From the NCBI GenBank assembly GCA_003671185.1, contig QWPN01000032.1, positions 15,805-79,804 of the forward strand: 64,000 nucleotides of DNA. The letters are read 5' to 3'. The notes beneath the pieces were generated by a model. That model saw only the letters and a list, made by a program, of their open reading frames with translations. It was not told where the DNA came from and made no database searches. A program made the translations under genes and the position numbers. This stretch comes from Planctomycetota bacterium. GTDB taxonomy: Bacteria; Planctomycetota; Planctomycetia; Pirellulales; UBA1268. Shown one piece after another: positions 1,279 to 62,680 of the stretch (positions within the stretch are counted from its first letter, which is position 1; each line of letters begins with the position of its first letter).

Positions 1279-1316
1279 CGTCGCGTCCCCGCGGCGCGGT
1301 GCCCCCGGCAGCCGGC

Positions 1317-1796
1317 ATGCAACTCCTCACTTTCACCGTCGCCGGACAGGCCTACGCCATCGAATCGCGGCGGGTGGTCGAGGTGCTGCCCCTCGTGCCG
1401 GCCCGCCCCATCCCGCACACGCCCGCCTACGTGCGCGGCATCTTCCCCTACCGCGGCCGGCTCGTGCCCCTCATCGACCTGAGCCTGCGGCTCGCCGACC
1501 GGCCTCCCGACGAACGACTCAGCACGCGGGTCATCGTCGTGGAGCCTGCCGGCCGGGTCCCGGACTGCTCGCAGTCGGTGGCCCGGTTGGGCCTGATTGC
1601 CGAAAATGTGATCACGATCGGCTCCGCGGAGGATGCCGATGCCGCCTTGCCGGCCCTCGATCTGCCCGACGCCGCGTTCCTGGGACGCATCCTGCGCATC
1701 GCCGGCCACACGGTGCAACTCCTCGACGTCGACCGGTTGCTGCCCCCCGAACTGGCGGCCGGGCTGTTCCCCGCCACCACGCCGAGCCCGACATGA
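1317..1796 (+). CDS. cheW: CheW coupling protein (WspB-like position)
   Basis: The tracked ORF 1299..1796 starts at a GTG; the first ATG is at 1317 (MQLLTFTVAGQAYAIESRRVVEVLP...YVRGIFPYRGRLVPLIDL, a CheW fold signature). The stop overlaps the cheR start (ATGA at 1793-1796). Confidence 0.85.
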   Translation: MQLLTFTVAGQAYAIESRRVVEVLPLVPARPIPHTPAYVRGIFPYRGRLVPLIDLSLRLADRPPDERLSTRVIVVEPAGRVPDCSQSVARLGLIAENVITIGSAEDADAALPALDLPDAAFLGRILRIAGHTVQLLDVDRLLPPELAAGLFPATTPSPT

Positions 1797-3717: not shown

Positions 3718-3756
3718 GCCGTACGCCGTTTCATCGGGTCTGCGGAGGACAGCGCC

Positions 3757-22418: not shown

Positions 22419-23831
22419 TCATCGCCCCTCCAGCGACCGCCGCATCCGAGCCCGGGCGGCCGCGTCGCGGTAGAACAGGTTATAGGTCTCGAAAGGGATG
22501 ATTTTTTCGTCCGGCGTCACGAAGTGGATGCACGACCGCTTCACGCGGCCGAGGCAGAAGTTGTGGGCATCCATGAACTCCACGATCACCACGCGGAACG
22601 TGTCCTCGTAGCCAAGGCCCGCGGGCAGTGGCACCTCCGGCAGGCAGCAGAGGAGTTCGGCCAGCTTCTGCTCGTTGTTGCACTCGGCCGTGGCGAGTGA
22701 GAAGAACTCGAGTACCCGGCGATGCAGGTCGGGGTATTTCTCGAACGTGATCGCGTTGGGCAGCGTCTCGACGAGCAACTCCCGCGGGAAGAACGAGGTC
22801 ACCGGGGCAATCCGCGACCCTTTCCGCAGGGCGTAGCCGATGGCGATGCTCTCCGGGTTGCAGGGCAGCGGGATGATGTCGCCCGGACCGAACGGGCCGC
22901 CGGAGCCGACGATCCGCCGCCTGATCGCCGACAGGGGAAACCGATCTCGCGACGGATCAAAACCCTCGTTGCGGCCGGCGTCCTGGATGGGCTGGAAGAC
23001 GACGCCGCGGACGCACCGCCACTGGAGCGCGTGGTCGATGATCGCCGGAAGCTCGTCGTCGTTCACGCCCTGCTTGACCACGACGACGAGCGTCGTGGAA
23101 ATGCCGGCCCGCTCCAGCGCCTCGAGGGCCTGCCGCCGGATCCGCGTCAGGTCGGCACCCCGCAGGTTCAGGTGGGCCTCCGGCCGCAGCGAGTCGAATT
23201 GCAGGTAGACCTCGAAGCCGGGGCGAAGTTCGGCGAGCCGGCGGACAAACTCGGGGTCCTCGGCGATGCGGATCCCGTTGGTGTTGAGCATCACGTGGCG
23301 GATCGGCCGCCGCTTGGCCGCGGCCAGGATCTCGAGGATCTCTGGGTGGATCGTCGGCTCCCCGCCGGAAATCTGCAGCAGGTCGGGCTCCCCTTCGCTC
23401 CGCACAAGCGCGTCCATCATCCGCTCGATCTCGGCGAGCGGCCGATGCAGGGACCGCTGCGGCGAGGAGTCGGAGAAGCAGACCGGGCAGGAGAGGTTGC
23501 AGGCCTCGTTGACGTCGATGAGGGCCAGGCAGGAGTGCTGCTCGTGGTCGGGGCAGAGCCCGCAGTCGTAGGGGCAGCCCCGCTCGGTGTGCGTCTGGAG
23601 CACGAGCGGCCGGTCGCCGGGCTTGAGGTAGTCGTGGCAGAGCCGCCAGTAGGCGGCGTCGGTGGAGACGAGCACCTTCCGCGGCCCATGGGCCCGGCAG
23701 CGCTTGAGATAGTAGACCCGCTCCTCCTCGATCACGATCTTGGCCGGCACGAGCGCGAGGCACTCGTCGCACAATGACGTCGTCTGCCCGAAAAAGACGT
23801 ACGGCGTCTGCCTGCGGACGGTCACTGACAT
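22419..23831 (-). CDS. Radical SAM enzyme with N-terminal Zn-ribbon/Cys cluster (MJ0619/Tes-like architecture)
   Basis: ATG at 23831. Sequence SLCDECL...ERGCPYDCGLCPDHEQHSCLALIDVNEACNLSCPVCF contains the radical SAM CxxxCxxC cluster, followed by GGEPT. The protein is 470 aa. Confidence 0.85.
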   Translation of the reverse strand: MSVTVRRQTPYVFFGQTTSLCDECLALVPAKIVIEEERVYYLKRCRAHGPRKVLVSTDAAYWRLCHDYLKPGDRPLVLQTHTERGCPYDCGLCPDHEQHSCLALIDVNEACNLSCPVCFSDSSPQRSLHRPLAEIERMMDALVRSEGEPDLLQISGGEPTIHPEILEILAAAKRRPIRHVMLNTNGIRIAEDPEFVRRLAELRPGFEVYLQFDSLRPEAHLNLRGADLTRIRRQALEALERAGISTTLVVVVKQGVNDDELPAIIDHALQWRCVRGVVFQPIQDAGRNEGFDPSRDRFPLSAIRRRIVGSGGPFGPGDIIPLPCNPESIAIGYALRKGSRIAPVTSFFPRELLVETLPNAITFEKYPDLHRRVLEFFSLATAECNNEQKLAELLCCLPEVPLPAGLGYEDTFRVVIVEFMDAHNFCLGRVKRSCIHFVTPDEKIIPFETYNLFYRDAAARARMRRSLEGR

Positions 23832-23879: not shown

Positions 23880-24650
23880 TCAGATGCCGAACAGACGGCG
23901 GGCGTTGGCGGTGGTCGCCGCCGCCAACGCCTCCAGTGGCTCTTCCCGGGCCAGCGCCAGGCAACCGGCCGTGTGCACGACGTGCGCCGGCTCGTTGCGT
24001 TTGCCGCGCAGCGGCTCGGGCGACAGGAACGGGCTGTCGGTCTCGACGAGGAGCCGGTCGAGCGGAACGGTCTTAGCCACCTCGCGCAGGTCGGCACCCG
24101 ACCGGAACGTGACCATGCCCGCAAAGCCCAGGTGACAGCCGAGGTCGGCCGCCTCCGCCGCCTCCAACGCCGTGCCCGTGAACGAATGCAGGACGGCGCG
24201 GAGCGGCCCGCGGGACGAAGCCTCGCGAATCATGTCCAGGACGTCGCGAATGCTTTCCCGGGTGTGGATCACGACCGGCAGCGAGTGCCGCTGCGCGAGC
24301 CTGAGATGGCGATCGAAAAACTCGCGCTGCAGGTCTGCCGGCGCCGTCGTGCGATACCAGTCGAGGCCCGTCTCGCCGATGGCGGCCACACGGCCTTCCC
24401 TCGCCAGCCGCTCAATTCTTTCCCATTCACCGGGCTCGGCGTCGGCCACGTCGTTGGGGTGAAGGCCGGCCGCGGCGACAAGTCCCGGTTCGCGCGCGGC
24501 CAGGTCCGCGGCGGCCTCGCTATCTGCGGCCCGCGTACCGATCACCGCCATCCGCGTCACGCCGGCGGCCCGGGCCCGCGCCAGCACGTCGGGCAGCTCC
24601 GCCCCGAACCGCATGGGGTCGAGGTGGCAATGGCTGTCGAAATACTCCAT
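23880..24650 (-). CDS. tatD: TatD-family metal-dependent hydrolase/DNase
   Basis: N-terminus MEYFDSHCHLD, then IGETGLDWY, VVIHTRE, HSFTG and ETDSPFL. Confidence 0.9.
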   Translation of the reverse strand: MEYFDSHCHLDPMRFGAELPDVLARARAAGVTRMAVIGTRAADSEAAADLAAREPGLVAAAGLHPNDVADAEPGEWERIERLAREGRVAAIGETGLDWYRTTAPADLQREFFDRHLRLAQRHSLPVVIHTRESIRDVLDMIREASSRGPLRAVLHSFTGTALEAAEAADLGCHLGFAGMVTFRSGADLREVAKTVPLDRLLVETDSPFLSPEPLRGKRNEPAHVVHTAGCLALAREEPLEALAAATTANARRLFGI

Positions 24651-24653
24651 GGC

Positions 24654-25133
24654 TCAGGACGCCGCGGCTGGCGCCGCCGACACCGCACCTGACGGAGCGG
24701 TTCCCAGAAGGCCGGCCCGCGACCTGGCCACCAGTTGCTCGAGCGCGTCGGCATGACGCCTGGCCGAGTGCACCGCCTCGATCGCGAGTTCGGCGGCCGC
24801 CGCATCATCCGCGGCGTTGGCGGCCAGCGCGTCACACTCGGCCGCCTGCGCCCGCAGCCGATCGATGACCCGCGACATCAGGTAACCAAGGTCGAGATCG
24901 TGCCAGGCCGTGTAGGACAGTGGATAGGCCACCCGGGGCAGGTTCACCCCACGATCCTCGAGAATCGCGGCCGCCCGGGCCGACAGGCTCTTCTGATCGC
25001 CCACCAGATCGGCCAGCGCCACTTTCAAGCCCTCGTCGCCGGGATAGGACCAGATGCCGGACTCGGCCAGATACATGGCCGGCGACGACTCCAGCGTTTG
25101 CAGCACACGCACCAGCAGGTCGGTCTTGGCCAT
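24654..25133 (-). CDS. Hypothetical protein (159 aa), packed between nuoN and tatD
   Basis: GAGGAA SD upstream of ATG 25133. The gap to the nuoN stop is 12 bp and the gap to the tatD start is 3 bp. No recognisable domain. Confidence 0.55.
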   Translation of the reverse strand: MAKTDLLVRVLQTLESSPAMYLAESGIWSYPGDEGLKVALADLVGDQKSLSARAAAILEDRGVNLPRVAYPLSYTAWHDLDLGYLMSRVIDRLRAQAAECDALAANAADDAAAAELAIEAVHSARRHADALEQLVARSRAGLLGTAPSGAVSAAPAAAS

Positions 25134-25145
25134 GGTGAGATTTCC

Positions 25146-26786
25146 TCAGGACGCAATCCGACCGGCCAACTGTGCGAAGGCGTAGAGTCCGGACCAGAAC
25201 ACGCCCAGTACGACGATCGGCAACGCCAGAGCCGCCACCAGTCCGCCCGACAGCCAGACCGGCGCATTGGCATCGATGAAGCGGTCGGCCGGAGGTGGGT
25301 CGAACGTCATCACCTTGAGCACCCGCAGGTAGTAGAACAGGCTGATCACGGTGTTGACGCCACCCACCACGAGCAGGGCCAGCAGCAGCGACCGGACCGC
25401 GGGGCTGGCGGCGCCCGACGAGATGGCCTGTGCCAGCGAGGAGAACACGAGGAACTTGCCGACGAAACCGGCGAGCGGTGGCAGACCGATCAGGCTCACG
25501 AGCACCACTGCCGTGGCCACCACGAGGCCCGGGCTGCTGCGCACGAGCCCCGCGTAGGCGGAGATCTCCTCGCTGCGCAGCCGGTTCCGCAGCACGGCAA
25601 CGATGGCGAACGCCGCCAGGTTCATGAACAGGTAGGTGCCCAGGTAGAAGGCCAGCGCGCTGACGGCGTCCCGGGCCTGCCCTGGGGCCACTCCCATCAT
25701 CGCCACCGCAGCCGCCACACCCATCATCAGGTAGCCGGCGTGTGCGATCGTCGAGTAGGCGAGCATGCGCTTCATGTTCGTCTGGCCGTAGGCGGCCAGG
25801 TTGCCCAGCGTGCAGGTCGCGGCCGCCATCAGCGCCACGACCACGAGCATGAAGAAGCGGACGTCGGCCAGCCCCTCGCCGCCGGGCCCCGCGGCCAGCG
25901 TGCCCAGGCCGAACGCCAGCCGCACCACCAGGGCCACGGCGGCCGCCTTGCTGGCCACCGACAGGAACGCCCCCACCTCGGCCGCCGCTCCCTCGAACAC
26001 GTCCGGGCACCAGAAGTGAAACGGCACGGCGGAGAGCTTGAACGCCAGGCCCACGGCCACCATCAGGCCGCCCAGCACGAGCACCATCGTGGTCCCCTGA
26101 TCGGCGCCGACCACCCGGGACAGTTCGGCGGCCATGCTCGGCAGATGGCAGGTGCCGAGCACGCCGGCCAGCAGGCTGATGCCGTACAGCATCACGCCGG
26201 CCGCGCCGGCACCGTAGACGGCGTACTTGAGAGCGGCCTCGGAACTCGCCTTGCGCCCCTTCAGCATCCCCGCCAGCGCGTAACTCGGCACGCTCGCCAT
26301 CTCCACCGCCATGAACACCATCAGCAGGTGATTGGCGGAGGCCATCAGGCACATGCCCAAGGCGGCCCCGAGTACGAGCGTGTAGAAGTCCGCACCATCC
26401 TCACGATCGGGAATTCCCGACACTTTGGTGAACGGGATGTAGAGGAGAAGGAAGCCCGTGAGCAACAACCGGATGATGGCGGTCAAGGCGTCAAACACGA
26501 GCAGGCCACCGAACAACTCCTGCCGCCCCGGCACAGCGTCGGCCCCCGGCCATCCGGACAGCGGCAGGCCGGTCGCATCGCACCACGCGTACCAGAAGGC
26601 GAAGGCCACGCCCCCCAGCGCCACGAGTCCGGAATCAAGCCAGCGCAGCACCGGCAGCATCCGGCAGAGCAGCACGAGCACCACCGTCGCCGCCAGCGCC
26701 GCTTCGGCACGAAACAGCGGCAGCGACACCCTGAGCGTGTCATCGATCGTGCCGGCGACGAGTGATCCGAGTTCCATGGGCTGCAT
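25146..26786 (-). CDS. nuoN: NADH-quinone oxidoreductase subunit N
   Basis: 546-aa polytopic antiporter-like subunit and the last member of the L-M-N series (FKLSAVPFHFWCPDVFEGAA, MLAYSTIAHAGY). Confidence 0.9.
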   Translation of the reverse strand: MQPMELGSLVAGTIDDTLRVSLPLFRAEAALAATVVLVLLCRMLPVLRWLDSGLVALGGVAFAFWYAWCDATGLPLSGWPGADAVPGRQELFGGLLVFDALTAIIRLLLTGFLLLYIPFTKVSGIPDREDGADFYTLVLGAALGMCLMASANHLLMVFMAVEMASVPSYALAGMLKGRKASSEAALKYAVYGAGAAGVMLYGISLLAGVLGTCHLPSMAAELSRVVGADQGTTMVLVLGGLMVAVGLAFKLSAVPFHFWCPDVFEGAAAEVGAFLSVASKAAAVALVVRLAFGLGTLAAGPGGEGLADVRFFMLVVVALMAAATCTLGNLAAYGQTNMKRMLAYSTIAHAGYLMMGVAAAVAMMGVAPGQARDAVSALAFYLGTYLFMNLAAFAIVAVLRNRLRSEEISAYAGLVRSSPGLVVATAVVLVSLIGLPPLAGFVGKFLVFSSLAQAISSGAASPAVRSLLLALLVVGGVNTVISLFYYLRVLKVMTFDPPPADRFIDANAPVWLSGGLVAALALPIVVLGVFWSGLYAFAQLAGRIAS

Positions 26787-26805
26787 CAGCGGGGGCGGCT
26801 CCGGT

Positions 26806-28593
26806 TCAGCGGCGGGCGGTGGCGTCGGCGGCCAGCGGCGGCTGCGCCGCCGGGGCGTCGGGCTTCACCGTGCGGGTCCATTCGGCGAGCGTCTCCACCT
26901 GGCGGTTCACCGTCGGGGTGACGTAATTGAAAAGCGTCTGCGGGGCCACCCCGAAGAGGATCGCCAGGAACACGAGCGGGGTGGCGATCGCCAGTTCCCG
27001 GCCGGTGATCGGCGTCAGGTGATCGCCATGCGGACCCTTGTATTCGGCGCCCAGATAGACCCGCTGGATCGCCCACAGGATGTAGGCCGCCGTGAGGATC
27101 ACCGTGAAGGCCGAGATCACGGCCAGCACTCGGCTGTAGTTCCAACTGGAGAGCGTCACCAGCACCTCGCCGATGAAACCGCACAGCCCCGGCAGGCCCA
27201 GGCCCGCGAAGAAGATCGCCACTGCCAGGCCGCTGTACACCGGCATGCGGTTGAAGATGCCGCCGAATTCCTCGAGATTGCGATGGTGCACCCGGTCATA
27301 GAGCACGCCCACCATGAAAAACATCCCGGCCGACGAGATGCCGTGGGCCAGCATTTGGAACATGGCCCCGTTCACACCCTGGGCCCAGGCGTCCCAGCGG
27401 AACTCGTTGCCGGCCACCGCGCTCCACACGCCCAGGCCCAGCATCACGTAACCCATGTGGCTCACGGAGCTGTAGGCCACCATCCGCTTGAAGTCCTTCT
27501 GGGCCAGCGCCGCAAAGGCGCCGTAGACCATCGACACCACGCCCAAACCGCACACCAGCCAAGCGAGCGCCAGCCCTGCGCCGGGACAGATCGGATAGCA
27601 GATGCGCAGGATGCCGTAGCCACCCAGCTTGAGCAGCACGCCGGCCAGGATCATCGAGATCGGCGTCGGCGCCTCGACGTGGGCGTCGGGCAGCCAGGTG
27701 TGCACCGGCACCACGGGCACCTTGATCACGAAACCGACGAGCAGCAGCAGGAAGGCCCACGTCTCCAGGCTCAGGCCCCAGAGGTTGACCGCAGCGAACG
27801 GCGACTCGGGCAGTTGGCCGAGCTGGGCCAGCGCCAGCAGGTTGAACGTATGGACTGGCGACGTGGCCGTCTTGATCGCCGCCACGGCATCAGCCTGAGC
27901 GGCCGCGTCGAGCACGGGACTGACGACGTGTGCGGCCACCAACTGCTCGGCCGACAGATCCCGCAGATCGCCCGTGAAATACAGCATCAGGATCGCCAAC
28001 AGCATGAGCACGCTGCCGAGCAGCGTGTAGAGGAAGAACTTGATGGCGGCGTATTCCCGCCGCGGACCGCCCCAGATGCCGATCAGGAAGTACATCGGCA
28101 GCAGCATCACCTCCCAGAACACGTAAAACAGGAAGAAGTCGAGCGACACGAACACGCCCAGCATGCCCGTCTCCAAGAGCAGAAACAGCACGTGGTAGGC
28201 CTTCACGTGCTTGGTGATCGGCCAACTAGCGGCGGCGGCCAGCATCGACAGAAACGTGGTGAGGACGACGAGCGGCATGCTGATGCCGTCGACACCCAGC
28301 AGGTACTCGATGTTGAAGGCCGGAATCCACGGCTGCTTGACCATGGCCTGCATGCCGGCCTCGCCCACCCTGAACTGTGCCGGGCCGACCGCTCCGAACA
28401 GCGTCGGCCACGCCATCCACAGCGACAGCACGAACACCACCGCCGTGGTGAGCAGCGTGATCCAGCGGATCGCCTCCTCGCGGCCCTTGGACACGATGGG
28501 CAGCGAAAGCAGCGCGGCCACGAGGGCCGGCAGGAACACGATCGCCGTGAGGGGCCAGAGGGCGGGCTGGTCGAGCGTTGCGACGGGAAGCAT
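26806..28593 (-). CDS. nuoM: NADH-quinone oxidoreductase subunit M
   Basis: 595-aa antiporter-like subunit (FVFWEVMLLPMYFLIGIWGG, HTWLPDAHVEAPTP, MVAYSSVSHMGY). Confidence 0.92.
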   Translation of the reverse strand: MLPVATLDQPALWPLTAIVFLPALVAALLSLPIVSKGREEAIRWITLLTTAVVFVLSLWMAWPTLFGAVGPAQFRVGEAGMQAMVKQPWIPAFNIEYLLGVDGISMPLVVLTTFLSMLAAAASWPITKHVKAYHVLFLLLETGMLGVFVSLDFFLFYVFWEVMLLPMYFLIGIWGGPRREYAAIKFFLYTLLGSVLMLLAILMLYFTGDLRDLSAEQLVAAHVVSPVLDAAAQADAVAAIKTATSPVHTFNLLALAQLGQLPESPFAAVNLWGLSLETWAFLLLLVGFVIKVPVVPVHTWLPDAHVEAPTPISMILAGVLLKLGGYGILRICYPICPGAGLALAWLVCGLGVVSMVYGAFAALAQKDFKRMVAYSSVSHMGYVMLGLGVWSAVAGNEFRWDAWAQGVNGAMFQMLAHGISSAGMFFMVGVLYDRVHHRNLEEFGGIFNRMPVYSGLAVAIFFAGLGLPGLCGFIGEVLVTLSSWNYSRVLAVISAFTVILTAAYILWAIQRVYLGAEYKGPHGDHLTPITGRELAIATPLVFLAILFGVAPQTLFNYVTPTVNRQVETLAEWTRTVKPDAPAAQPPLAADATARR

Positions 28594-28651
28594 GGCGGGA
28601 TCCGTGCGAGGTTCCGGAGGGTGACTGGTGAACGGGGACGTGCGGCCGGGG

Positions 28652-31096
28652 TCAGCCGGCCAGTGACGACGAGAGCAGCATGCTGGCCAAGACGTACAGC
28701 GCGACGGTGCCGACGACGATGAACATCACGTACTGCCGCAGCCGGCCCGTCTGCAGCTTCTTGAGCTCCAGGCCGGCATTCCACGTGGCGTTGGCCGTGG
28801 CGTTGACGAGGCCGTCAACCAGCGTGCGATCGATCCAGGCGTCGATGCCCGCCAGTTGCCGGGCCGTCCAGGCCACGCCATCGATGATGCGGTCGATAAT
28901 GCCCCGGTCGACCCCGCTGGCCAGGCTGGCGATCCCCAGCACCGGCTTCACGAACAGCGCGTCGTAGAGTTCATCGAAGTACCAACGGCCGGCCAGAAAG
29001 GCATACAGCGGCCGGAACACGGCGGCCACGGCGGCCGGGGAGATCGACCGCCACACGTACATCGCCGCGGCCAGCAGCACGCCCGCCAGAGCGGTCCCAA
29101 AGGCGGTCCAGGTGGCGATCGTGTGGAACGGCTCGCCGTGGCTGAGGTGCTCGGCGGGAATGGTGATGCCGGCGGCGGCGAAGCCCTCGGCCGTGCCCGC
29201 GGGCCGGGCCTGCTCGAGCAGGTTCGCGATGCCGAAGCCACCCGGCAGCGTCCAGCCCGCCACCACGGCCAGCACCGCCAGCGTCACGAGGGGCGTGACC
29301 ATCACGTTCGGCGACTCGTGGGCGTGGTCGGCGATATGGTGATCCCGGGGCTGGCCCGCGAACGTCATGAACCAGAGTCGGAACATGTAGAACGCGGTCA
29401 GGAATGCACCCCCCGCCACGGCCCAGAACAGGATCGCGTGCCGGGGGTTCGCCTGGGAGAAGCAGAGGGCCTGGGCGAGGATCGAGTCCTTGGAGTAATA
29501 GCCCGAAAGCCCGATCACGAAGGGCACGCCGGCCCCGATGATGGCCAGGCAGCCGACGAGCATGGTGCCGGCCGTGTAGGGCATCACTCGGGCGAGGCCA
29601 CCCATCTTCCGCATGTCATTCGTGTGGCAGGCGTGGATCACCGATCCCGAGCAGAGAAACAGCAGGCTCTTGAAGAAGGCGTGCGTGACGAGGTGGAACA
29701 GGCCGGCCACCCAGCCGCCCACGCCCAGCGCCAGCATCATGTAGCCGAGCTGACTGACGGTGGAGTAGGCGAGCACCCGCTTGATGTCGTTGGCGACCAG
29801 CGCGATTGTGGCGGCGATGAACAGCGTGATCGCGCCCGCGTAGGCGATCACGAGCAGCACTTCGGGCGTGAGCACGGGAAAGAACCTGCCCACGAGGTAC
29901 ACGCCGGCGGCCACCATCGTGGCCGAATGGACGAGCGCCGAGACCGGCGTGGGGCCTTCCATGGCATCAGGCAGCCAGACGAAGAGTGGAAACTGGGCGC
30001 TCTTGCCCACGCAGCCGCAGAAGATGCCGAGACCGGCCACCACGAGGAGCCAGTGTCCCAGGCCGATGGCCCGCCAGTCGGAGATGCGGCTGGCCACTTC
30101 GCTGGCCGCATCGGCCGGGTTGCCCGCGTGGTCGGCCGCGATCCGCGCCACCTCGTCGGCCGCCGCGAACGTCACCATCCCGTCCGGCACCTGGAGCGCA
30201 TGACCGCCAGCGGCAGGACGCACGAGACTGAACAGGCCGGGCGTCGTGACGACGCTGCCATCGGGGCCCGCCACCTGCGCGTCGGCGAACTGCAAGGTCC
30301 CCAGCGCGCCCCACAGGGCCATCAGCCCGATGAGCATGCCAAAGTCGCCCACCCGATTGACGATGAACGCCTTGTTGGCGGCGGTCGAGGCGCTCGTGCG
30401 CTCGTAGTAGAAGCCGATCAGGAACCAGGAGCAGATGCCCACCAGTTCCCAGAAGATGAAAACCATCGCCAGATTGCCGGCGATCACGATGCCCAGCATC
30501 GAGAAGCAGAACAGGGACAGGGCCTGGAAGAACCGCGGAAAGCGGCCGGGCCGGTGGAGGTGGCCGCCACCCGCAAGATGCACCTCGTGATCGGTGACGT
30601 CGTGGAGCTCGTCGTGCATGTATCCGGACGCATAGACGTGAATGCACGTGGCGATGAACGTCACCACCACGAACATCAGCACCGTGAGCGCATCGACGTA
30701 CCAGCCGATGGAGAGCCGCAGCCGGCCACCCTCGTAGAGGGTGTACCAGTCTCCGGCGTAGTGGGCCGGCACCTCGGCATGGCCGCCATGGACGGCGGCG
30801 TCGGCATGAGCACCGGCGTCATCTTGCTCGGCAGCCGCAGCGTCGGCATGGTCGCTCGCGTGGGCGGCTGCATGCCCGCCGTGGGCCGCCGCCTGCACGG
30901 GATGCACACCCAGCCAGGTCACGAACGCCGCCAACGAGAGCACCAGCGACGTGACGATCGCCGCGGTCGCCACCCAGGCGGCGTTCCGACCGTGCGACCC
31001 CATGCGCGGCCCGAAGAACAGGATGGCCAGGAAAGACGCCAGGGGCGCCAGCCAGGCCAGGCCGAGGAGCATCGGGAGTTGGGAGGCGGGATCCAT
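28652..31096 (-). CDS. nuoL: NADH-quinone oxidoreductase subunit L (expanded, 814 aa)
   Basis: Motifs FIFWELVGICSWFLIGFYY, GKSAQFPLFVWLPDAMEGPTPVSALVH and VLAYSTVSQLGYM. It contains two large insertions relative to typical NuoL (~610-670 aa). Confidence 0.92.
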   Translation of the reverse strand: MDPASQLPMLLGLAWLAPLASFLAILFFGPRMGSHGRNAAWVATAAIVTSLVLSLAAFVTWLGVHPVQAAAHGGHAAAHASDHADAAAAEQDDAGAHADAAVHGGHAEVPAHYAGDWYTLYEGGRLRLSIGWYVDALTVLMFVVVTFIATCIHVYASGYMHDELHDVTDHEVHLAGGGHLHRPGRFPRFFQALSLFCFSMLGIVIAGNLAMVFIFWELVGICSWFLIGFYYERTSASTAANKAFIVNRVGDFGMLIGLMALWGALGTLQFADAQVAGPDGSVVTTPGLFSLVRPAAGGHALQVPDGMVTFAAADEVARIAADHAGNPADAASEVASRISDWRAIGLGHWLLVVAGLGIFCGCVGKSAQFPLFVWLPDAMEGPTPVSALVHSATMVAAGVYLVGRFFPVLTPEVLLVIAYAGAITLFIAATIALVANDIKRVLAYSTVSQLGYMMLALGVGGWVAGLFHLVTHAFFKSLLFLCSGSVIHACHTNDMRKMGGLARVMPYTAGTMLVGCLAIIGAGVPFVIGLSGYYSKDSILAQALCFSQANPRHAILFWAVAGGAFLTAFYMFRLWFMTFAGQPRDHHIADHAHESPNVMVTPLVTLAVLAVVAGWTLPGGFGIANLLEQARPAGTAEGFAAAGITIPAEHLSHGEPFHTIATWTAFGTALAGVLLAAAMYVWRSISPAAVAAVFRPLYAFLAGRWYFDELYDALFVKPVLGIASLASGVDRGIIDRIIDGVAWTARQLAGIDAWIDRTLVDGLVNATANATWNAGLELKKLQTGRLRQYVMFIVVGTVALYVLASMLLSSSLAG

Positions 31097-31117
31097 GACC
31101 TTCTCGCTGCCGCGATC

Positions 31118-31489
31118 TCAACCCTTGAGATCATCCGCACGATCGACGTCGACCGTGGCGTGGTTGTTGTAGAAGTTGAGGGTGATTGCCAGGGCCACGG
31201 CGGCCTCGGCGGCCGCCAGCAGGATCACGAACAGGGCGATCGCCTGCCCATCCAATCCCAGCGACTTCCCCCCCTCGGCCTGCAGGTACGGGGAAGCGAA
31301 GGCCACGAAGTTCACGTTGGCGCCGTTGAGGACGAGTTCGATGCCCATCAACACGCCGAGGGCGTTGCGTTTCACCGCCATGCAGGCCACGCCGGCCGTG
31401 AACAAGATCGCCCCCACCACCAGGTAGTGCGTCACGCCCACGGGCTCCGTGAGCAAACTGGCCACAAGCGGGGACAGGGACGGCTGCAT
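31118..31489 (-). CDS. nuoK: NADH-quinone oxidoreductase subunit K
   Basis: Three-TM protein with the motif LGVLMGIELVLNGANVNFVAF. Confidence 0.9.
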   Translation of the reverse strand: MQPSLSPLVASLLTEPVGVTHYLVVGAILFTAGVACMAVKRNALGVLMGIELVLNGANVNFVAFASPYLQAEGGKSLGLDGQAIALFVILLAAAEAAVALAITLNFYNNHATVDVDRADDLKG

Positions 31490-32178
31490 CAGCGTGCCCC
31501 TCCCGCCAGCACCGACCCGCCACGTGACCCCTCGCGTCCCACGGCGGCGTGGGCGGCGACGGTCGCCGGGGGTTCCATCGACGCGGCCACCTCGATGGCG
31601 CGTGGCGTCCGGCGCCGCTTGGCACGGGCCAGGTACGCGGCGCCTACGAGCACCACGAGCAGATGCACAGAAACGATTTCGAACGGCAGCAGGTAACCGC
31701 TACGAACACCGCCGGGAGCACCTGCCGACGCCTCGTCGACCCGCGTGCCCAGCAGCGCCATGCCGAGCGGCGTGGCGGCAGGCTCGCCGTCTCGACCGGC
31801 GGCCGGCTTCCGCCATTCCGGCACGGAGAACGCCGACTGCAGCAGCACGGCGAGCAGGGCGGCGCCGATCACGCCCGCCAGCACGCGATCGCCCGGCGCG
31901 GTCTTGATCGACACGAATGGAGCCTGGGCCGTGAGCATCACGCCGAACACCAGCAGCACGAGCGTGCCGCCCACATAGATCATGAGTTGCATGGCACCCA
32001 CGAACTCGGCGCCGGCCAGAAAGAACAGCCCCGCCGTCGCGCCCAGCGAGAGTACGAGGTACAACGCCATGCGCACCACGTTTTCCGCCGCCACCACGGC
32101 CACGGCACAGCCGCAGGCCAGCGCCGCGAACAGAAAGAAGAAGACGGAGTGCCAGTCGATGGCGGCCAGCGGTATCAT
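31489..32178 (-). CDS. nuoJ: NADH-quinone oxidoreductase subunit J
   Basis: ATG at 32178 within ORF 31489..32553, forming an ATGA overlap with the nuoH stop. Sequence FFFLFAALACGCAVAVVAAENVVRMALYLVLSL...AEFVGAMQLMIYVGG. Confidence 0.88.
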   Translation of the reverse strand: MIPLAAIDWHSVFFFLFAALACGCAVAVVAAENVVRMALYLVLSLGATAGLFFLAGAEFVGAMQLMIYVGGTLVLLVFGVMLTAQAPFVSIKTAPGDRVLAGVIGAALLAVLLQSAFSVPEWRKPAAGRDGEPAATPLGMALLGTRVDEASAGAPGGVRSGYLLPFEIVSVHLLVVLVGAAYLARAKRRRTPRAIEVAASMEPPATVAAHAAVGREGSRGGSVLAGGAR

Positions 32179-33371
32179 GGGAGCACCCCGGCGACAGCGG
32201 AGGACCGAGCCGCGGCAGACCGGCCACCCGGTCCCTCGAGCCAGCCCTCGCGGATCTCGCCCGCGGGCCGCGACAGCCCTGGCGCCACTCCACCCGGCAG
32301 CATCAACTGCCAGAGCATGGCACCAGCGAACATCGCCGCGGCGATCGGCGTGCAGTACTTGAGGCAGGTGGTCATCACCTGGTCGATGCGGAGCCGGGGC
32401 AGCGTCCAGCGCACCCACATCATCACGAGCACGCCCAGCGTGGCCTTGCCGAGCAGGTTCGCCATGCCCAGCAAACGCACGAAATAGTTCGCCGTGTCGC
32501 CCGTGCCCTCCGAGAGGCCCACCAACCGTGCCACCGGGATGGGGCCGTTCCAACCGCCCATGAACAGCACCGCGGCCAGGGCGCTGACGAGGAACATCGA
32601 TCCGTACTCGGCCATGAAGAAGTAACTCCAGCGCAGGCCGGAGTATTCAGTGTGGAAGCCGGCCACGAGTTCACTCTCCGCCTCAGCCAGGTCGAAGGGG
32701 GCGCGGTTGACGCTGGCCACCGCACAGGTGACGTACACCCAGAAGATCACGAACGTGAAGGGGTCGTGGAACAGGTACCAGTTCGTGACCCAGCCCGCCT
32801 GCTTCTCCGCGATCGTCACCAGATCCATGCTGCCGGCCAGCATCACGGGAACGACCACGCACATCCCCAGCGGCACCTCGTAACTCACGACCTGGGCCGC
32901 CTCGCGCATGGCCCCGAACAGCGACCATTTGGAGGCCGACGCGTAGCCGGCGAGGATCACCCCGAACACCTCCAGGCCGAGCACCGCCACCACGAAGAAC
33001 ACGCCGACGTTGAGCCGCTGGCCCACGAAATCGAAGGCGAACGGGAGGGCGATGAAGGCGCAGAAGGAGGCGCAGAAACTGACGTATGGGGCCAGACGGA
33101 ACAGCATCCCGTCAGCACCCTCGGGCATCAGGTCCTCCTTGGCGATGAGCTTGATGCCATCAGCCAGGGACTGCAGCCAGCCGAACCGGCCGCCCGTGCG
33201 CGTGGGACCGAGGCGATCCTGGATCCGGGCGGCAATCTTGCGCTCCGCCCAGATGAACACCAGTGCGCCGCCGGCGATCACGTTGAGGATCAACACGGCG
33301 GCCACGACGGCCGTGACCGTCCATGCCAGCCACTCGGGGAAGCCGACCGAGTTGATGAGGAATTCAGCCAT
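32175..33371 (-). CDS. nuoH: NADH-quinone oxidoreductase subunit H
   Basis: Motifs WAERKIAARIQDRLGPTRTG, QSLADGIKL and RAPFDLAEAESELVAGFHTEYSG. Confidence 0.95.
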   Translation of the reverse strand: MAEFLINSVGFPEWLAWTVTAVVAAVLILNVIAGGALVFIWAERKIAARIQDRLGPTRTGGRFGWLQSLADGIKLIAKEDLMPEGADGMLFRLAPYVSFCASFCAFIALPFAFDFVGQRLNVGVFFVVAVLGLEVFGVILAGYASASKWSLFGAMREAAQVVSYEVPLGMCVVVPVMLAGSMDLVTIAEKQAGWVTNWYLFHDPFTFVIFWVYVTCAVASVNRAPFDLAEAESELVAGFHTEYSGLRWSYFFMAEYGSMFLVSALAAVLFMGGWNGPIPVARLVGLSEGTGDTANYFVRLLGMANLLGKATLGVLVMMWVRWTLPRLRIDQVMTTCLKYCTPIAAAMFAGAMLWQLMLPGGVAPGLSRPAGEIREGWLEGPGGRSAAARSSAVAGVLP

Positions 33372-33656
33372 CAGTCCGAGTCGTGCGGCGGCGAAACAAC
33401 GGGCTGCCCACGGTTTTCCCGGGCAGAAACCGACTTCGTGAAAATTCGCACGAAGTTTGCCCTACACCAACTCTTTTCACAAGCCCCGGCGGGGGATCGG
33501 GCCGGTTTCGCACGGTGCACCCACGGAGCCACGGGTCGGGGGACGCCGAGACCATGTGCGCCATGGGCACGCCCGGCGACGCCGCGCCATCCCACTCTCC
33601 GCAGCCGCGGCTTTCACTCCCGCGCGGCACGCACCGGTGCCGCGAGCGGCGGCCGG

Positions 33657-34862
33657 CTACCGGTCGATCTCGCCCATCACGATGTCGAGACTGCCCACGA
33701 TGGCCGGCACGTCGGCGATCAGGCAGCCACGGCACAACTCCGGCGCCACCGCCAGGTTTGAGAACGAACTCGAACGGGCCCGCACTCGCCAGGGAATCGC
33801 TGACCCGTCGCTCACCAGATAGAACCCCATCTGGCCCTTCGGTGCCTCGGTCTCCAGGTAGGCGTCGCCGGCCGGAATCTTCTCCGCGAGTTTGAGCGGC
33901 TCGCCCAGCGGCCCCTTGCAGGCCGAGTAGCGGTCGATCGACTGGCGAACCAGGTCCATCGACTGCACCACCTCCAGCATGCGCACGAAGAACCGGTGCC
34001 AGCAGTCCCCCAGCACCGCATCGGCCGGCACGGGCGGATATTCGTGGTCGCGGGGATAGTGTCCGTCCTTCATCACGGCCACCTCGAAGGCGTAGCCGTC
34101 GTACATCGCCGTGTAGATGGCTTCACCGTCGCGCCGCATGTCCTGGTCGACGCCGCTACCGCGGAGCACGGGGCCCGAGCAACCGTATTCGATGGCCAGA
34201 TCCCGCGACATGACGCCGATGTTCGCGGTGCGCTTCACGAAGATCGCGTTGGTCGTGAGCAGCGCGTGGTATTCCTTGATGATGGGCTCGAACTGGTCGA
34301 GAAAGGCCTCGCAGCGGCCCAGCCAGCCCGGCGGCAGGTCGGCCGTCAGGCCGCCCACGGTGATGTAGCTGTAGGTGAGGCGGGCCCCGCAGGCCTCCTC
34401 GAACAGGTCGAGGATCTTCTCGCGCTCGCGGAAGGCGTACAGGAACGGGCTGAACGTGCCCAGATCGAGGCCGTAGGCCCCCATGCCCACCAGGTGGCTG
34501 GCGATGCGACCCAACTCGGCGATCAGCACGCGAAGGTGTCGGGCCTTCTCGCTGACCTGGTACTTCATCAACTTCTCCACCGCCAGCGCCCAGCCGAGAT
34601 TCATGTTCATCGCGGCCAGATAGTCCATCCGGTCGGTGTAGGGAATCCACTGCCGGGCGGTGAGGTTCTCGCCGATCTTCTCGGCGCAGCGGTGCAGGTA
34701 GCCGATGTGCGGCTCCACCTCCGACACCACCTCGCCATCGGTGCGCAGCACGAGCCGCAGCACACCGTGCGTGCTGGGATGCTGTGGCCCCATGTTGACG
34801 AGCATCTCGTCGGTGCGGACATCGAATTCGATGATGCGGGGGTCGTCGGCGACGTGCGACAT
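33657..34862 (-). CDS. nuoD: NADH-quinone oxidoreductase subunit D
   Basis: Motifs MLVNMGPQHPSTHGVLRL, GYLHRCAEK and a C-terminal LDIVMGEIDR. Confidence 0.95.
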   Translation of the reverse strand: MSHVADDPRIIEFDVRTDEMLVNMGPQHPSTHGVLRLVLRTDGEVVSEVEPHIGYLHRCAEKIGENLTARQWIPYTDRMDYLAAMNMNLGWALAVEKLMKYQVSEKARHLRVLIAELGRIASHLVGMGAYGLDLGTFSPFLYAFREREKILDLFEEACGARLTYSYITVGGLTADLPPGWLGRCEAFLDQFEPIIKEYHALLTTNAIFVKRTANIGVMSRDLAIEYGCSGPVLRGSGVDQDMRRDGEAIYTAMYDGYAFEVAVMKDGHYPRDHEYPPVPADAVLGDCWHRFFVRMLEVVQSMDLVRQSIDRYSACKGPLGEPLKLAEKIPAGDAYLETEAPKGQMGFYLVSDGSAIPWRVRARSSSFSNLAVAPELCRGCLIADVPAIVGSLDIVMGEIDR

Positions 34863-34877
34863 GGTGATGTCCCTGGT

Positions 34878-35408
34878 TCAGCGGCCGCGGATGCCGTGGT
34901 ATTCGAGCGGTTGTTCGTAGTCCTTGCGCAGCGGGTACCCCTCCCAATCCTCCGGACAGAGGATGCGGCGCAGGTTGGGGTGGCCCGTGAACCAGACGCC
35001 GGAGAGGTCATACACCTCGCGCTCGTGCCAGTCGGCGCCCCGCCACACGCCGCACAGGCTGGGAACCTCGGGCAACTGTCCGGGCACGTCCCCCTTCCAG
35101 CGCGGCACCTTCGCCTTGAGCACGAGGCTGACACGGGACGCCGTGCTCCACAGGTGGTAGACGAGTTCGAGGTGGGGCTGCCACGACACCTTCGCCGCCT
35201 TCTTGGGGTCGGGCTCGCACCAATCCACCACCGTCATGCACTGCAGCGAGTCGAACCGCACCGGGCTCCGGGAATTCAGCCAGCCGCAGACGTCGGCGAT
35301 CCGTTCCGGGGCGATCTCGACCCAGGGGTCGATCGCTTCGAGGTTCCTACCCACCACCGCGCCAGGCAGGGCCTCATCAAGTTGTTCCAGGAAGCCGGGG
35401 CCTCGCAT
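34878..35408 (-). CDS. nuoC: NADH-quinone oxidoreductase subunit C
   Basis: ATG at 35408 within ORF 34878..35663. Sequence [34 protein letters not shown]...[10 protein letters not shown]. Confidence 0.9.
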
Positions 35409-35451
35409 GGTCGCTCCGAGAAGTGATTTGCAGCTGGAAGTAGCCGCCTGC

Positions 35452-36093
35452 TTACGGTGCGGCCGCGCGTTCGGCCGACACGGCCCGCACCCAGTCGAGA
35501 TCGCCTCGATACCACACGTAGGCGAACCCGATGAGGAGCACGGCAAAAAATGCCACCATGTCGACGACCGCCGTTCGTGCCAGGAGGGAGCCGGCCCGGG
35601 CCACCGACCATTCCCCGAGCGCCTGCTGATCCGATATCTCACCGCGTCCGGCCTGTAGCGCACGCTTCCGTGCCCACACGATCTTCTCCTGCATCGGCTC
35701 GCGAAGCGTGTCCGTCTCCGGCGCGGCCGGTCGCGACAACCCCAGCTCCCGTTGCAAGCCGACGGCGGCCGGCGTCAGCGTCCCGTCGGCGCACACCGTG
35801 GCCAAGGCCGGATCGGTGAGTTGCGTGGCCTTGCCGAACACCGTGGCCCAAGGAAAGAATAAGGCAACTTCCACGTCGAAGATGATGAACAGCAGGGCGA
35901 CTACGTAAAATCTCAGGTCGAACTGCACGAAACTGGATCCGATGGCCGGTTCCCCACACTCGTAGACCTCGAGTTTCTCCGTGTTCGGAGCACGGGGCCG
36001 TACCAGCCAGCCGACCAGCAGGTTGACGGCCAGGAAGGCGCCGCCCACGGCCACGAACAGGGCCACGTAGCCGGCAGTCAGGGTGGGGTGCAT
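35452..36093 (-). CDS. nuoA: NADH-quinone oxidoreductase subunit A (expanded, 213 aa)
   Basis: Motifs [39 protein letters not shown] and a C-terminal [14 protein letters not shown], separated by a ~80-aa insertion. Confidence 0.88.
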
Positions 36094-36134
36094 GGCGGGA
36101 GAGGCTCGTGGGGGACGGTTGGGCCGCGGGGCTG

Positions 36135-36698
36135 CTACTGGTTGGGGCCACCGTGGACCGGTTCCACGATCACCTTCGAGGCGGCCACGGCCGTGGGGTT
36201 GAGCGTTGACCGGCCCCAGGCCACTTCGACAGGCAGACGGGCGAAGTCGACGATGGTTCCGTCACGGCTGTAGCAGGACAGGTCGAGCGTCGATCCCATG
36301 AAGATGCAGTCGACGGGGCAGGGTTCCACGCACAGGGCGCAGAACATGCACTTCGAGTAGTCGATGGTGAATCCGCTCACGCGAAAGCCCTTGCCGTTCT
36401 CGACCCGCTCCTTGCCGATGTAGATGCAATCGACCGGGCAGGCCTTCGAGCACTGGTCGCAGGCGATGCAGGTGGTGAGATCGTAGCGGTGGAAGCCGCG
36501 GTAGCGGGCCGCGACGGGGGCCGGCAATTCGGGATATTCGAAGTGTTCTGTAAACGTGCGGCGTGTCTGATCGTAGGTGCTGCCGAACACCCGTAGCGTG
36601 ACAAGCATCCCCTCGGCGACGGTTTTGACCGCGGAAAACAGATTGCGGAACCACTCGTTCATGACGGATCCGGAGGAGGAATCGTCGCGGGAGAGCAC
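36135..36698 (-). CDS. nuoI: NADH-quinone oxidoreductase subunit I (2x[4Fe-4S])
   Basis: Two ferredoxin motifs: CIACDQCSKACP and CMFCALCVEPCP. The tracked start is a GTG at 36698; the ATG at 36662 (MNEWFRNLF...) is probably the true start. Confidence 0.88.
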   Translation of the reverse strand: MLSRDDSSSGSVMNEWFRNLFSAVKTVAEGMLVTLRVFGSTYDQTRRTFTEHFEYPELPAPVAARYRGFHRYDLTTCIACDQCSKACPVDCIYIGKERVENGKGFRVSGFTIDYSKCMFCALCVEPCPVDCIFMGSTLDLSCYSRDGTIVDFARLPVEVAWGRSTLNPTAVAASKVIVEPVHGGPNQ

Positions 36699-37001: not shown

Positions 37002-37259
37002 ATGCTCGTGCTGTCGCGGAAAAAAGACGAGAGCATCGTCATCAACAACGACATCACTATCGTCGTCGTGGAAATCCGCGGCGACAAGGTGAGGCTCGGC
37101 GTTGAGGCGCCCAAGGAAGTGCCTGTGCACCGACGTGAGGTGTATGAGGCGATCGCGCGGGGTGACGCGGCGGACGTGCCGTCCGTCTCGTCGGCCGCCG
37201 CTGGCGATGACCTGGGAAACGCGGCGGTGCCGCCACAGGGCGGTGCCGACGCTGGCTAA
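37002..37259 (+). CDS. csrA: Carbon storage regulator CsrA (copy 2, orphan)
   Basis: ATG at 37002 within ORF 36954..37259, with SD AAGGAA. Sequence MLVLSRKKDESIVINNDITIVVVEIRGDKVRLGVEAPKEVPVHRREVYEAI. The C-terminal tail is unrelated to that of copy 1. Confidence 0.9.
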   Translation: MLVLSRKKDESIVINNDITIVVVEIRGDKVRLGVEAPKEVPVHRREVYEAIARGDAADVPSVSSAAAGDDLGNAAVPPQGGADAG

Positions 37260-37477
37260 CTGTCCGCGGGACAGGCAGTGGCGACATGTTCGCCGCCCGG
37301 TCGATCCCGGGCCGAACCGCAGGTGTTCTTGCACCGGCGGTCCCCGCATCATGCGACGAATAGCTCGTTCCACGGTCTGTTTGGACGGCCGATGAACGGC
37401 AGCCTTCCGCGCCCGGCCGTTACGCGGTAACCTTGAGGACGGTTTCCCTTGATGTCGCGCTCGACGGCCGGCGTCTC

Positions 37478-37550
37478 GGCCCCATCGTCTAGAGGCCTAG
37501 GACATCGCCCTTTCACGGCGGTAACCGGGGTTCGAATCCCCGTGGGGTCA
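37478..37550 (+). tRNA. tRNA-Glu (anticodon UUC)
   Basis: 73-nt cloverleaf: acceptor stem GGCCCCA/TGGGGTC plus discriminator A, D-arm GTCTAGAGGCCTAGGAC, anticodon loop CTTTCAC, and T-arm GGGGTTCGAATCCCC. CCA is not encoded. Confidence 0.95.
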
Positions 37551-37579
37551 TAGCTCCGGCGGCCGCCCGAGCTCTCAAC

Positions 37580-38671
37580 ATGCCGGAATTGCCTCCCATC
37601 GAAACTCCAGCGGACTCCCGGCACCCGGTCTACGATGCCGTTCTGCTGGTGTCGTTCGGCGGACCTGATGGCCCGGAGGACGTGCTTCCGTTCTTGGAAA
37701 ACGTGCTGCGCGGCCGCAACGTGCCCCGCGAGCGCATGCTCGAGGTGGCCGAGCACTACAACCACTTTGGCGGCAGGAGCCCGATCAACGAGCAGAACCT
37801 GGCGCTGCTGGCCGCCCTGCGGGCCGAACTCGAGCGCCGAGGCCCGCGACTGCCCGTCTATTGGGGTAATCGCAACTGGCATCCGCTGCTCACCGACACG
37901 CTCCGCGAGATGGCGGATGCCGGCGTGAAACGGGCCATCGCCTTCGTGACCAGCGGCTTCAGCAGCTACTCCGGCTGCCGGCAGTACCGGGAAAACATCG
38001 CGGCCGCCCGCGAGGCGGTGGGCGAGCGGGCTCCCCAGGTCGACAAGATCCGCGTGTTCTTCAATCACCCGGGGTTCGTGGGGCCGATGGCCGCCAACCT
38101 GCGCCAGGCGCTCGAGCATTTTCCCGCTGCCGACCGCGCGGCCGTGCCGGTGTTGTTCACGGCCCACAGCATTCCCTCTTCGATGTCGGATGGCTGCCGC
38201 TACGTCGCCCAATTGCAGGAATCCTGCCGCTTGGTCGCCGCCGAGGCAGGTGTGACGCACTGGCAACTCGTCTACCAGAGCCGCAGCGGTCCACCCTCGC
38301 AACCATGGCTCGAGCCCGACGTCGGCGATGCGATCCGCGATCTGCACGCACGCGGCGTGAGGCAACTGGTCGTGGCTCCGATCGGATTCATCTCCGACCA
38401 CATGGAGGTGCTCTACGATCTCGACACGGAGGCCGCCGACCTGTGTCGAGACCTCGGCGTCGACATGAAGCGTGCCGCCACCGTGGGCACGGACCCGGAG
38501 TTCGTGGCCATGGTCCGCGACCTGATCGCGGAACGGGCCTGGGATCTGCCCAATCGCGTCGCCATCGGCACCCTGCCCGCCAACCACGACGTCTGCCCGG
38601 TCGACTGCTGTCCGGCACCGCAGCGGCCCACGCTGCCGGCCGCCGGCCGCCCCGGGGGACCGCCCGGCTGA
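37580..38671 (+). CDS. hemH: Ferrochelatase
   Basis: Motifs AVLLVSFGGPDGPEDVLPFLENV, YWGNRNWHP, FTAHSIP and IGFISDHMEVLYDLD. Confidence 0.9.
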   Translation: MPELPPIETPADSRHPVYDAVLLVSFGGPDGPEDVLPFLENVLRGRNVPRERMLEVAEHYNHFGGRSPINEQNLALLAALRAELERRGPRLPVYWGNRNWHPLLTDTLREMADAGVKRAIAFVTSGFSSYSGCRQYRENIAAAREAVGERAPQVDKIRVFFNHPGFVGPMAANLRQALEHFPAADRAAVPVLFTAHSIPSSMSDGCRYVAQLQESCRLVAAEAGVTHWQLVYQSRSGPPSQPWLEPDVGDAIRDLHARGVRQLVVAPIGFISDHMEVLYDLDTEAADLCRDLGVDMKRAATVGTDPEFVAMVRDLIAERAWDLPNRVAIGTLPANHDVCPVDCCPAPQRPTLPAAGRPGGPPG

Positions 38672-62631: not shown

Positions 62632-62680
62632 CGGTCGATTCTCCCTGTCTTCCCTGCGGGCAGCGGCCCGCGGATCGAGC

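Follow-up and report, generated by a model that had tools for sequence, protein, structure and literature searches.

Gene content and layout of the nuo cluster

The 64,000-nucleotide stretch of contig QWPN01000032.1 analysed here (hereafter, the window) belongs to a bacterium of the order Pirellulales (Planctomycetota) and carries on its minus strand, between positions 25146 and 36698, ten genes for subunits of respiratory complex I in the order nuoI-A-C-D-H-J-K-L-M-N. We found neither nuoB nor any gene of the NADH-dehydrogenase module (N-module; nuoE, nuoF, and nuoG), and the region is best read as coding for a Nuo11-type complex I without N-module, with 10 of its 11 core subunits present.

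The ten open reading frames (ORFs) were identified with Pfam and NCBIfam (Pfam E-values from 1e-11, for the Fer4 motifs of NuoI, to 1e-105). Both collections agree with the gene assignments made in a preliminary description of this DNA, and the gene boundaries are those called on identical public contigs (Table 1). The NuoD protein is identical to NCBI protein RLS79437.1 and scores 406 bits against NF004739 (cut-off 360), while the top NCBIfam match of NuoN is TIGR01770 (NuoN), with 309 bits, under its cut-off of 332.6. The top PDB sequence matches of NuoI are NdhI, NuoI, and TYKY chains; an alternative GTG start at 36698 would extend this protein to 187 aa. Since nuoH and nuoJ overlap, no nuoI occupies its canonical place between them. 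The G+C content of the window is about 68%.

The preliminary description also noted a 43-bp spacer without nuoB between nuoA and nuoC and a 285-bp gap between nuoD and nuoH, and both values were recovered when measured in the sequence. Direct reading of the shorter spacer, where a small missed ORF had been considered, revealed none. Within the 285-bp gap there was no match to an Rfam family, nor any promoter or terminator signal above shuffled expectation. Downstream, the cluster runs on, as had been described, into a gene for a 159-aa protein, tatD, a radical SAM gene, lgt, and a redoxin gene.

Table 1. Features of the nuo cluster and of the genes that follow it (positions in the window)
Feature	Position	Strand	Remarks
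nuoI	36135-36662	-	NuoI/NdhI-type 2x[4Fe-4S] subunit; first gene of the cluster; called at the same coordinates on public contigs
nuoA	35452-36093	-	213 aa; Pfam Oxidored_q4 in two stretches, E = 1e-28
nuoA-nuoC spacer	35409-35451	.	43 bp; site of nuoB in Gemmatales-like relatives
nuoC (30-kDa subunit)	34878-35408	-	Pfam Complex1_30kDa, E = 2e-38
nuoD (49-kDa subunit, quinone site)	33657-34862	-	Pfam Complex1_49kDa, E = 9e-81
nuoD-nuoH intergenic region	33372-33656	.	285 bp
nuoH	32175-33371	-	Pfam NADHdh, E = 1e-104; NCBIfam NF004741, 317 bits (cut-off 305)
nuoJ	31489-32178	-	Pfam Oxidored_q3, E = 1e-30; called on public contigs; overlaps the nuoH stop
nuoK	31118-31489	-	Pfam Oxidored_q2, E = 1e-23
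nuoL	28652-31096	-	814 aa; Pfam Proton_antipo_N, Proton_antipo_M, NADH5_C; NCBIfam NF005141, 598 bits (cut-off 556)
nuoM, single copy	26806-28593	-	TIGR01972, 530 bits (cut-off 264)
nuoN	25146-26786	-	Pfam Proton_antipo_M, E = 4e-54
159-aa gene after nuoN	24654-25133	-	Without Pfam or NCBIfam match
tatD-family hydrolase	23880-24650	-	Pfam TatD_DNase, E = 6e-79; 3 bp past the 159-aa gene

Absence of nuoB and of the N-module from the locus

A tblastn search of the 64 kb with E. coli NuoB and Thermus Nqo6 detected no NuoB, the best match having an E-value of 0.36, and Pfam scans of the window ORFs found no Oxidored_q6, Complex1_51K, 2Fe-2S_thioredx, or NuoG domains. Positions 1-3757 were judged from the genes called on the identical public contig, which belong to a chemotaxis operon and include no NuoB or NuoEFG. 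The earlier claim that nuoB and nuoEFG are absent from the window is therefore borne out by these scans. Nor did we find a standard nuoB-EFG set nearby, be it in the 64 kb, in the 6 kb to the left of the window, or in some 160 related loci (described below) searched to about 10 kb from nuoD.

The preliminary description had raised the possibility of an assembly error, and a nuoB deleted or misjoined in this contig during assembly or binning would indeed explain its absence. The window is metagenome-derived, which is the only point in favour of such an artefact, and its probability is practically negligible. The NuoD of the window is encoded on nine public contigs, and the six that we viewed (GROS21 series, up to 85.7 kb), each assembled from a different metagenome sample, have an identical gene order as far as each reaches; these independent assemblies exclude the error. 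In addition, an 85.7-kb contig from a further sample matches one window gene that we looked up and has the same order around it, and about 150 related loci likewise lack nuoB.

The gene order in Pirellulales and in a more distant lineage

Scanning GTDB with one genome for each species retrieved 80 loci with NuoD identities of 82 to 97%, labelled mostly as Pirellulales, Planctomycetia, or Planctomycetota (a few labels are evidently wrong). The nearest NuoD proteins carrying an organism name also came from metagenome-assembled genomes of Planctomycetota, Planctomycetia, or Pirellulales. By tblastn synteny, every one of these 80 Pirellulales species genomes has the order I-A-C-D as far as its contig reaches. 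The spacer between nuoA and nuoC, measured in the 71 loci that show both genes, ranges from 14 to 272 bp (median, 77 bp) and is never long enough for nuoB, which takes about 500 to 650 bp. No match to NuoB was found in the roughly 10 kb around nuoD in any of the 80 loci, even at E < 1.

The nuoI-first, nuoB-less order is, hence, normal for Pirellulales and represents a trait of the lineage rather than an anomaly. The cluster had been called atypical, which is correct when it is set against textbook operons but not within its own order, and its nuoI-first start is also common to Gemmatales-like relatives. That the order might prove to be the norm of the lineage had been named beforehand as an outcome that would lessen the interest of the locus, and this is what we found, though with no nuoB-EFG set nearby. 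The arrangement is plain in hundreds of deposited genomes, where it is the standard, publicly annotated Pirellulales complex I cluster; in the literature we found no description of planctomycete nuo gene order or of the location of nuoB.

Close relatives share the full string, from csrA / hemH through I-A-C-D-H-J-K-L-M-N to the 159-aa gene and tatD. At NuoD identities of 82 to 84%, I-A-C-D is often apart from H-N. Unrelated genes occur inside the junctions I-A (up to 2.3 kb) and D-H (up to 8.8 kb); the distance between nuoD and nuoH across Pirellulales genomes varies from 94 to 8773 bp, one locus (L012) has unrelated genes inserted between the two, and in more distant loci H-N does not lie within 10 kb. 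The D-H junction is a recurrent break point of the cluster, often broken or invaded in relatives, and the window holds one of the most compact versions of the Pirellulales layout.

The same order extends to a more distant lineage. A NuoD search of representatives clustered at 50% identity led to a protein with 67% identity (P0121), and a metagenome scan with this protein retrieved 80 more loci, of which 78 have I-A-C-D without nuoB. Among these is a P0121-like lineage (NuoD 62 to 67% identical to that of the window, many marine contigs), in which the spacers between nuoA and nuoC measure 13 to 378 bp.

The cluster is real but ordinary for its lineage, and the enzyme is of a known kind. The value of the observation is mainly corrective: what looks aberrant beside textbook operons is how a large and environmentally abundant order normally arranges these genes. 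Automated pathway calls that rely on gene clustering or on complete modules will rate the complex I of Pirellulales as partial, since nuoB is unlinked and the curated models give NuoI scores under their cut-offs. The points of interest that are left are the nuoB locus and the electron-input module of this N-module-less enzyme.

Enzyme class

All seven membrane subunits (A, H, J, K, L, M, and N) were matched by Pfam with E-values of 1e-23 to 1e-105, and NuoH, NuoL, and NuoM scored above the curated NCBIfam cut-offs. The C, D, and I subunits of the quinone-reducing module (Q-module) are present, with the 2x[4Fe-4S] motifs of NuoI and the His/Tyr/Asp quinone-site motifs of NuoD. NuoB, which is expected to be encoded with the complex, is absent from the window and from the roughly 160 related loci. 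NuoE, NuoF, and NuoG, which define the 14-subunit enzymes (Nuo14), were found neither among the window ORFs nor among the called genes of the related loci examined. The feature that marks Nuo11-type clusters, the lack of nuoEFG between nuoD and nuoH, is seen here, with the intergenic region leading directly to nuoH, and likewise in the relatives, so that the likeness to 11-subunit enzymes proposed in the preliminary description holds.

Compared to the canonical Nuo14/Nuo13 enzymes (Thermus nqo1-14, Paracoccus, and E. coli nuoA-N), the cluster shares A, C, D, and H-N and keeps the cofactor and quinone motifs. It differs in lacking nuoE/F/G, in the unlinked nuoB, in having nuoI at the front instead of between H and J, and in the large inserts of NuoA and NuoL. 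The Nuo11 operons of Chlorobi, Bacteroidota, and some Firmicutes, regarded as ancestral-type and menaquinone-reacting (PMC4758237), resemble it in having no N-module, in the probable use of menaquinone as acceptor, and in a donor that may be of the ferredoxin type. These operons keep the order A-B-C-D-H-I-J-K-L-M-N with nuoB in place (PMC4758237), unlike the window.

Another likeness is with the cyanobacterial and chloroplast NDH-1, a ferredoxin:plastoquinone oxidoreductase (PDB 6hum) that likewise has an 11-subunit core without NuoEFG and whose genes are also split over several loci (PMC4758237). Of the solved structures, the NdhH and NdhI chains of NDH-1 score best against NuoD and NuoI of the window, by a small margin (for NuoD, 313 bits versus 291 for Paracoccus and 288 for Thermus). 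However, the NCBIfam NdhH and NdhI models score far under their cut-offs, and the likely quinone here is menaquinone. We saw no NdhS, NdhO, NdhV, or other oxygenic-specific subunits in the window, and no candidate for a dedicated donor-docking subunit (NdhS/O/V or NuoX/Y) was recognised there; the 159-aa protein has no similarity to these subunits.

Also close is the Q-module arrangement of Gemmatales, represented by the cultured Tuwongella immobilis (LR593887.1), which likewise begins with nuoI followed by nuoA, has orthologous C and D subunits (NuoD about 63 to 65% identical), and lacks nuoEFG. There, too, genes are readily inserted into the cluster and nuoH-N tends to be split off from it, but nuoB is kept between nuoA and nuoC, where the window has 43 bp. 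In addition, H-N comes directly after D in the window, whereas other genes follow D in Tuwongella.

Other members of the superfamily were considered and rejected. Against the Fpo models, the scores fall well short for FpoD (306 bits, cut-off 600), FpoH (262, cut-off 475), FpoL (438, cut-off 1050), and FpoI (58, cut-off 180), and no FpoF-like gene was found in the window. A group 4 [NiFe] hydrogenase, Mbx, or formate hydrogenlyase (FHL) does not fit a NuoD without the Cys ligands of the NiFe centre, in which GPQHPSTHGV replaces the N-terminal Cys motif and the sequence ends in ...VMGEIDR; among solved chains, MBH, MBS, and FHL score far below complex I. A complex I of the 2M type was discarded, since there is one each of nuoL, nuoM, and nuoN, and the extra length of NuoL is not in the lateral helix.

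Selection on the remaining subunits and the whereabouts of nuoB

NuoI, NuoC, NuoD, and NuoH are under strong purifying selection, as judged from their coding sequences. Nei-Gojobori estimates of dN/dS between the window and its closer relatives, where dS is unsaturated, are about 0.03 for NuoI, 0.04 to 0.05 for NuoD, 0.03 to 0.08 for NuoH, and 0.08 to 0.13 for NuoC, with 0.12 to 0.18 for NuoA. Two full CxxCxxCxxxCP motifs are intact in NuoI, and NuoD carries GPQHPSTHGV, DRMDY, and GLDLG, all three of which are present in 116 of 119 full-length Pirellulales NuoDs. In the Thermus thermophilus structure reported by Baradaran et al. 2013, His38, Tyr87, and Asp139 of the quinone site lie in these motifs. 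Cluster N2 is bound by NuoB, which also makes up half of the quinone pocket. Because the conservation of NuoI and NuoD would make no sense without N2 and without the NuoB half of that pocket, a NuoB partner is almost certainly encoded elsewhere in the genome. The preliminary description had stated that NuoB must be encoded elsewhere; this stands indirectly, through the purifying selection and the intact motifs, while the locus itself was not found directly.

With E. coli, Thermus, and Gemmatales NuoB as queries against the window and 180 loci, tblastn matched only Gemmatales-like loci and unrelated contigs from viral collections, and a tblastn of plasmids together with two scans of viral contigs yielded only unrelated A-B-C clusters or low-GC contigs. 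Published genome surveys are consistent with an unlinked gene. In a Pirellulales-rich set of Planctomycetota genomes, the KEGG prevalence of nuoB is 14/26, equal to that of nuoA/C/D/H/J/L/M (PMC11929135, Table S4), and nuoA-nuoN were reported for Stieleria strain TBK1r, with no locus given (PMC11588811).

Taking all this together, it seems likely that the cluster belongs to a Nuo11-type complex I without N-module, with an inherited gene order and with nuoB at an unlinked locus, which fits the dispersed and insertion-prone nuo layouts found throughout Planctomycetia. Several points weigh against this interpretation. No Pirellulales nuoB was found within about 10 kb on either side of nuoD in the roughly 160 loci, nor any NuoB within 6 kb past the left end of the window on the 85.7-kb public contig. 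A protein search with the Gemmatales-type NuoB of locus L167 gave only Gemmatales-type proteins among the 120 matches listed, and in the five contexts of such NuoBs that we viewed, nuoI and nuoA lie just upstream in all five. The KO table of PMC11929135 is an aggregate that is not split by order or by locus. The top NCBIfam matches of NuoI are NuoI models, all of them under their cut-offs. Finally, the electron donor and the quinone are ones that we only infer.

The absence of any Pirellulales protein among the 120 listed relatives of Gemmatales NuoB could also mean that the orthologous nuoB was lost and that the complex borrows the NuoB of a second, full nuo operon or a small subunit similar to that of group 4 hydrogenases. 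The report of some Pirellulaceae with full nuoA-N and of a sister strain with nearly none hints at mobile extra operons (PMC11588811). We consider such a replacement rather unlikely. Gemmatales-type NuoBs alone fill the 120 matches, which can explain why no Pirellulales protein appears, and the partner subunits of NuoB in the window evolve slowly and resemble their Gemmatales orthologs. In solved structures, the contacts of NuoB with NuoD, NuoH, NuoA, and NuoI are extensive and co-evolved, which also counts against a borrowed subunit.

The lack of nuoB in all of the roughly 160 loci examined from lineages without it could, at the extreme, reflect that Pirellulales truly have no NuoB, the complex working without cluster N2 or being a non-redox, ion-translocating remnant. 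This is highly improbable. The Fe-S motifs of NuoI and the quinone motifs of NuoD would be pointless without the N2 relay, and they are intact and under purifying selection. To our knowledge, every known member of the complex I / group 4 hydrogenase superfamily has a NuoB homolog. Besides, the published prevalence of nuoB in Planctomycetota equals that of the other nuo genes (PMC11929135). An absent or replaced NuoB would be very surprising if true.

We also considered whether the insert of NuoA, or NuoI, could supply additional Cys ligands in compensation for NuoB, and rejected it: the insert has one Cys, and the insert itself is also present in L167, a Gemmatales-like locus that keeps NuoB.

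Proposed electron path

In an enzyme with an unlinked NuoB, a donor, possibly reduced ferredoxin or flavodoxin, would deliver electrons to the two clusters of NuoI, from which they would pass to N2 on NuoB and then to menaquinone at the NuoD/NuoH site; quinone reduction would drive proton pumping via NuoL, NuoM, and NuoN. A ferredoxin or flavodoxin donor is plausible by analogy with NDH-1, with the Campylobacter enzyme, and with Fpo enzymes that work without FpoF. The quinone is probably menaquinone, the respiratory quinone of planctomycetes, and a gene of the MqnA/MqnD family (futalosine pathway of menaquinone synthesis) is found at 19761-20636, about 4 kb from the cluster. NADH may be handled instead by Na+-NQR, an enzyme reported from each of the six planctomycete genomes in one comparison (PMC11588811).

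There is a slim chance that, in Pirellulales and in the second lineage without nuoB (the P0121-like one), the excised gene now belongs to a transcription unit of its own, perhaps together with the electron-input proteins of this complex I, or that it was replaced by a non-orthologous small subunit. If so, the neighbours of the relocated gene would lead straight to the donor module still missing for the Nuo11-type enzymes of aerobic heterotrophs.

Evolution of the gene order

In Gemmatales-like relatives of the window, nuoB is kept in the cluster. The loci L167 and L168, whose NuoD is about 65% identical, both read I-A-B-C-D and hold a normal NuoB in the 696-bp interval between nuoA and nuoC; the closest named proteins to the NuoB of L167, among the matches listed, come from Gemmataceae and Tuwongella immobilis. 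The complete genome of the latter has I-A-CMD-B-C-D, the context of P0373 is I-A-B-C, and two further loci read I-DUF2203-A-B-C-D (L178) and I-DUF2203-A-B-...-C-...-D (L179). In L177 the order is I-A-kinase-B, with C and D elsewhere. Scattering of nuo genes is common in Planctomycetia, of which L177 is an example.

The general bacterial gene order is A-B-C-D, and for this reason a two-step history is the most parsimonious. Judging from gene order only, nuoI probably moved ahead of nuoA-B-C-D before the split of Pirellulales and Gemmatales, and nuoB would then have been excised from its place between nuoA and nuoC on the way to Pirellulales. The excision in the P0121-like lineage may be shared with Pirellulales or separate, having occurred once or twice. 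Planctomycetia would thus offer a case of stepwise nuo operon erosion, in which nuoI moved first and nuoB was excised next, the D-H junction being the recurrent break point.

Some details of these relatives deserve mention. The layout of L177 (ERZ25039492 contig_7017, 2019-8259), nuoI-nuoA-(941-aa Ser/Thr kinase with TPR)-nuoB-(ECF sigma factor)-(kinase), is an extreme of nuo operon erosion in Planctomycetia. The DUF2203 gene between nuoI and nuoA lies at 4624-5070 in L178 and at 4760-5197 in L179, and there is none in the window; a complete Pirellulales chromosome (L071) has at 6200-6736 an ORF between the same two genes that appears DUF2203-like by eye. This gene may accompany the cluster optionally, or may have been lost from it. 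Fusions of Gemmatales-type NuoB are also annotated from Pfam domain pairs, one with NuoA (P0317, 324 aa) and two with NuoC (P0306 and P0386); they may be real or may stem from gene calling.

The 159-aa gene and the subunit inserts

Homologs of the 159-aa protein were found in 33 related loci, between nuoN and tatD wherever those genes are present, and synteny shows that the linkage to tatD is kept in relatives. Its only matches in the protein database are from Planctomycetia. The AlphaFold2 model (pLDDT 89) is a ferritin-like four-helix bundle, and a Foldseek search with it retrieved ferritins and Rv2844 (TM about 0.6, weak E-values of about 0.01). His78, Asp79, Asp110, and His127 are invariant; no conserved ExxH pair was seen by eye on the sequence and the invariant columns. 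With a dN/dS of 0.3 to 0.4, the gene evolves faster than the Nuo subunits. That it acts as an assembly factor, or in some metal-related way, is a guess.

In NuoA, some 85 aa are inserted between the second and third transmembrane helices (TM2 and TM3; hydrophobic segments at about 3-33, 53-88, and 167-198), a stretch that, by analogy with the known topology of NuoA, would face the periplasm. Across Planctomycetia, this subunit measures between 141 and 271 aa. NuoL exceeds the usual length by about 200 aa, with inserts after TM1 (rich in His/Ala/Asp) and within the antiporter domain, outside the lateral helix.

Other genes in the window

Next to the cluster, csrA is divergent to nuoI and is followed by a tRNA-Glu(UUC) directly upstream of the ferrochelatase gene hemH (37002-38671 and 40027-40103). 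Downstream of tatD, positions 22419-23831 code for a radical SAM protein with a HMPTM-type zinc ribbon, which we take to be of the methanopterin-biosynthesis type. A tRNA-Asp called by ARAGORN inside an aldo-keto reductase ORF was not seen by Rfam and is probably a false positive.

The minus strand between 42959 and 63952 holds about ten large ORFs (300 to 1070 aa) with almost no Pfam or PADLOC matches. One of them (44814-47906) has GAP1-N2 and GAP1-M (GTPase-associated protein 1) domains, and the one at 60577-62718 codes for a dynamin-family GTPase that faintly matches LeoBC; the run could be a GTPase-centred conflict or defence system. At the other end of the window, the plus strand from 1 to 7112 carries the chemotaxis operon mentioned above, with the order MCP-CheW-CheR-CheW-CheA-CheB according to the genes called on the 85.7-kb public contig.

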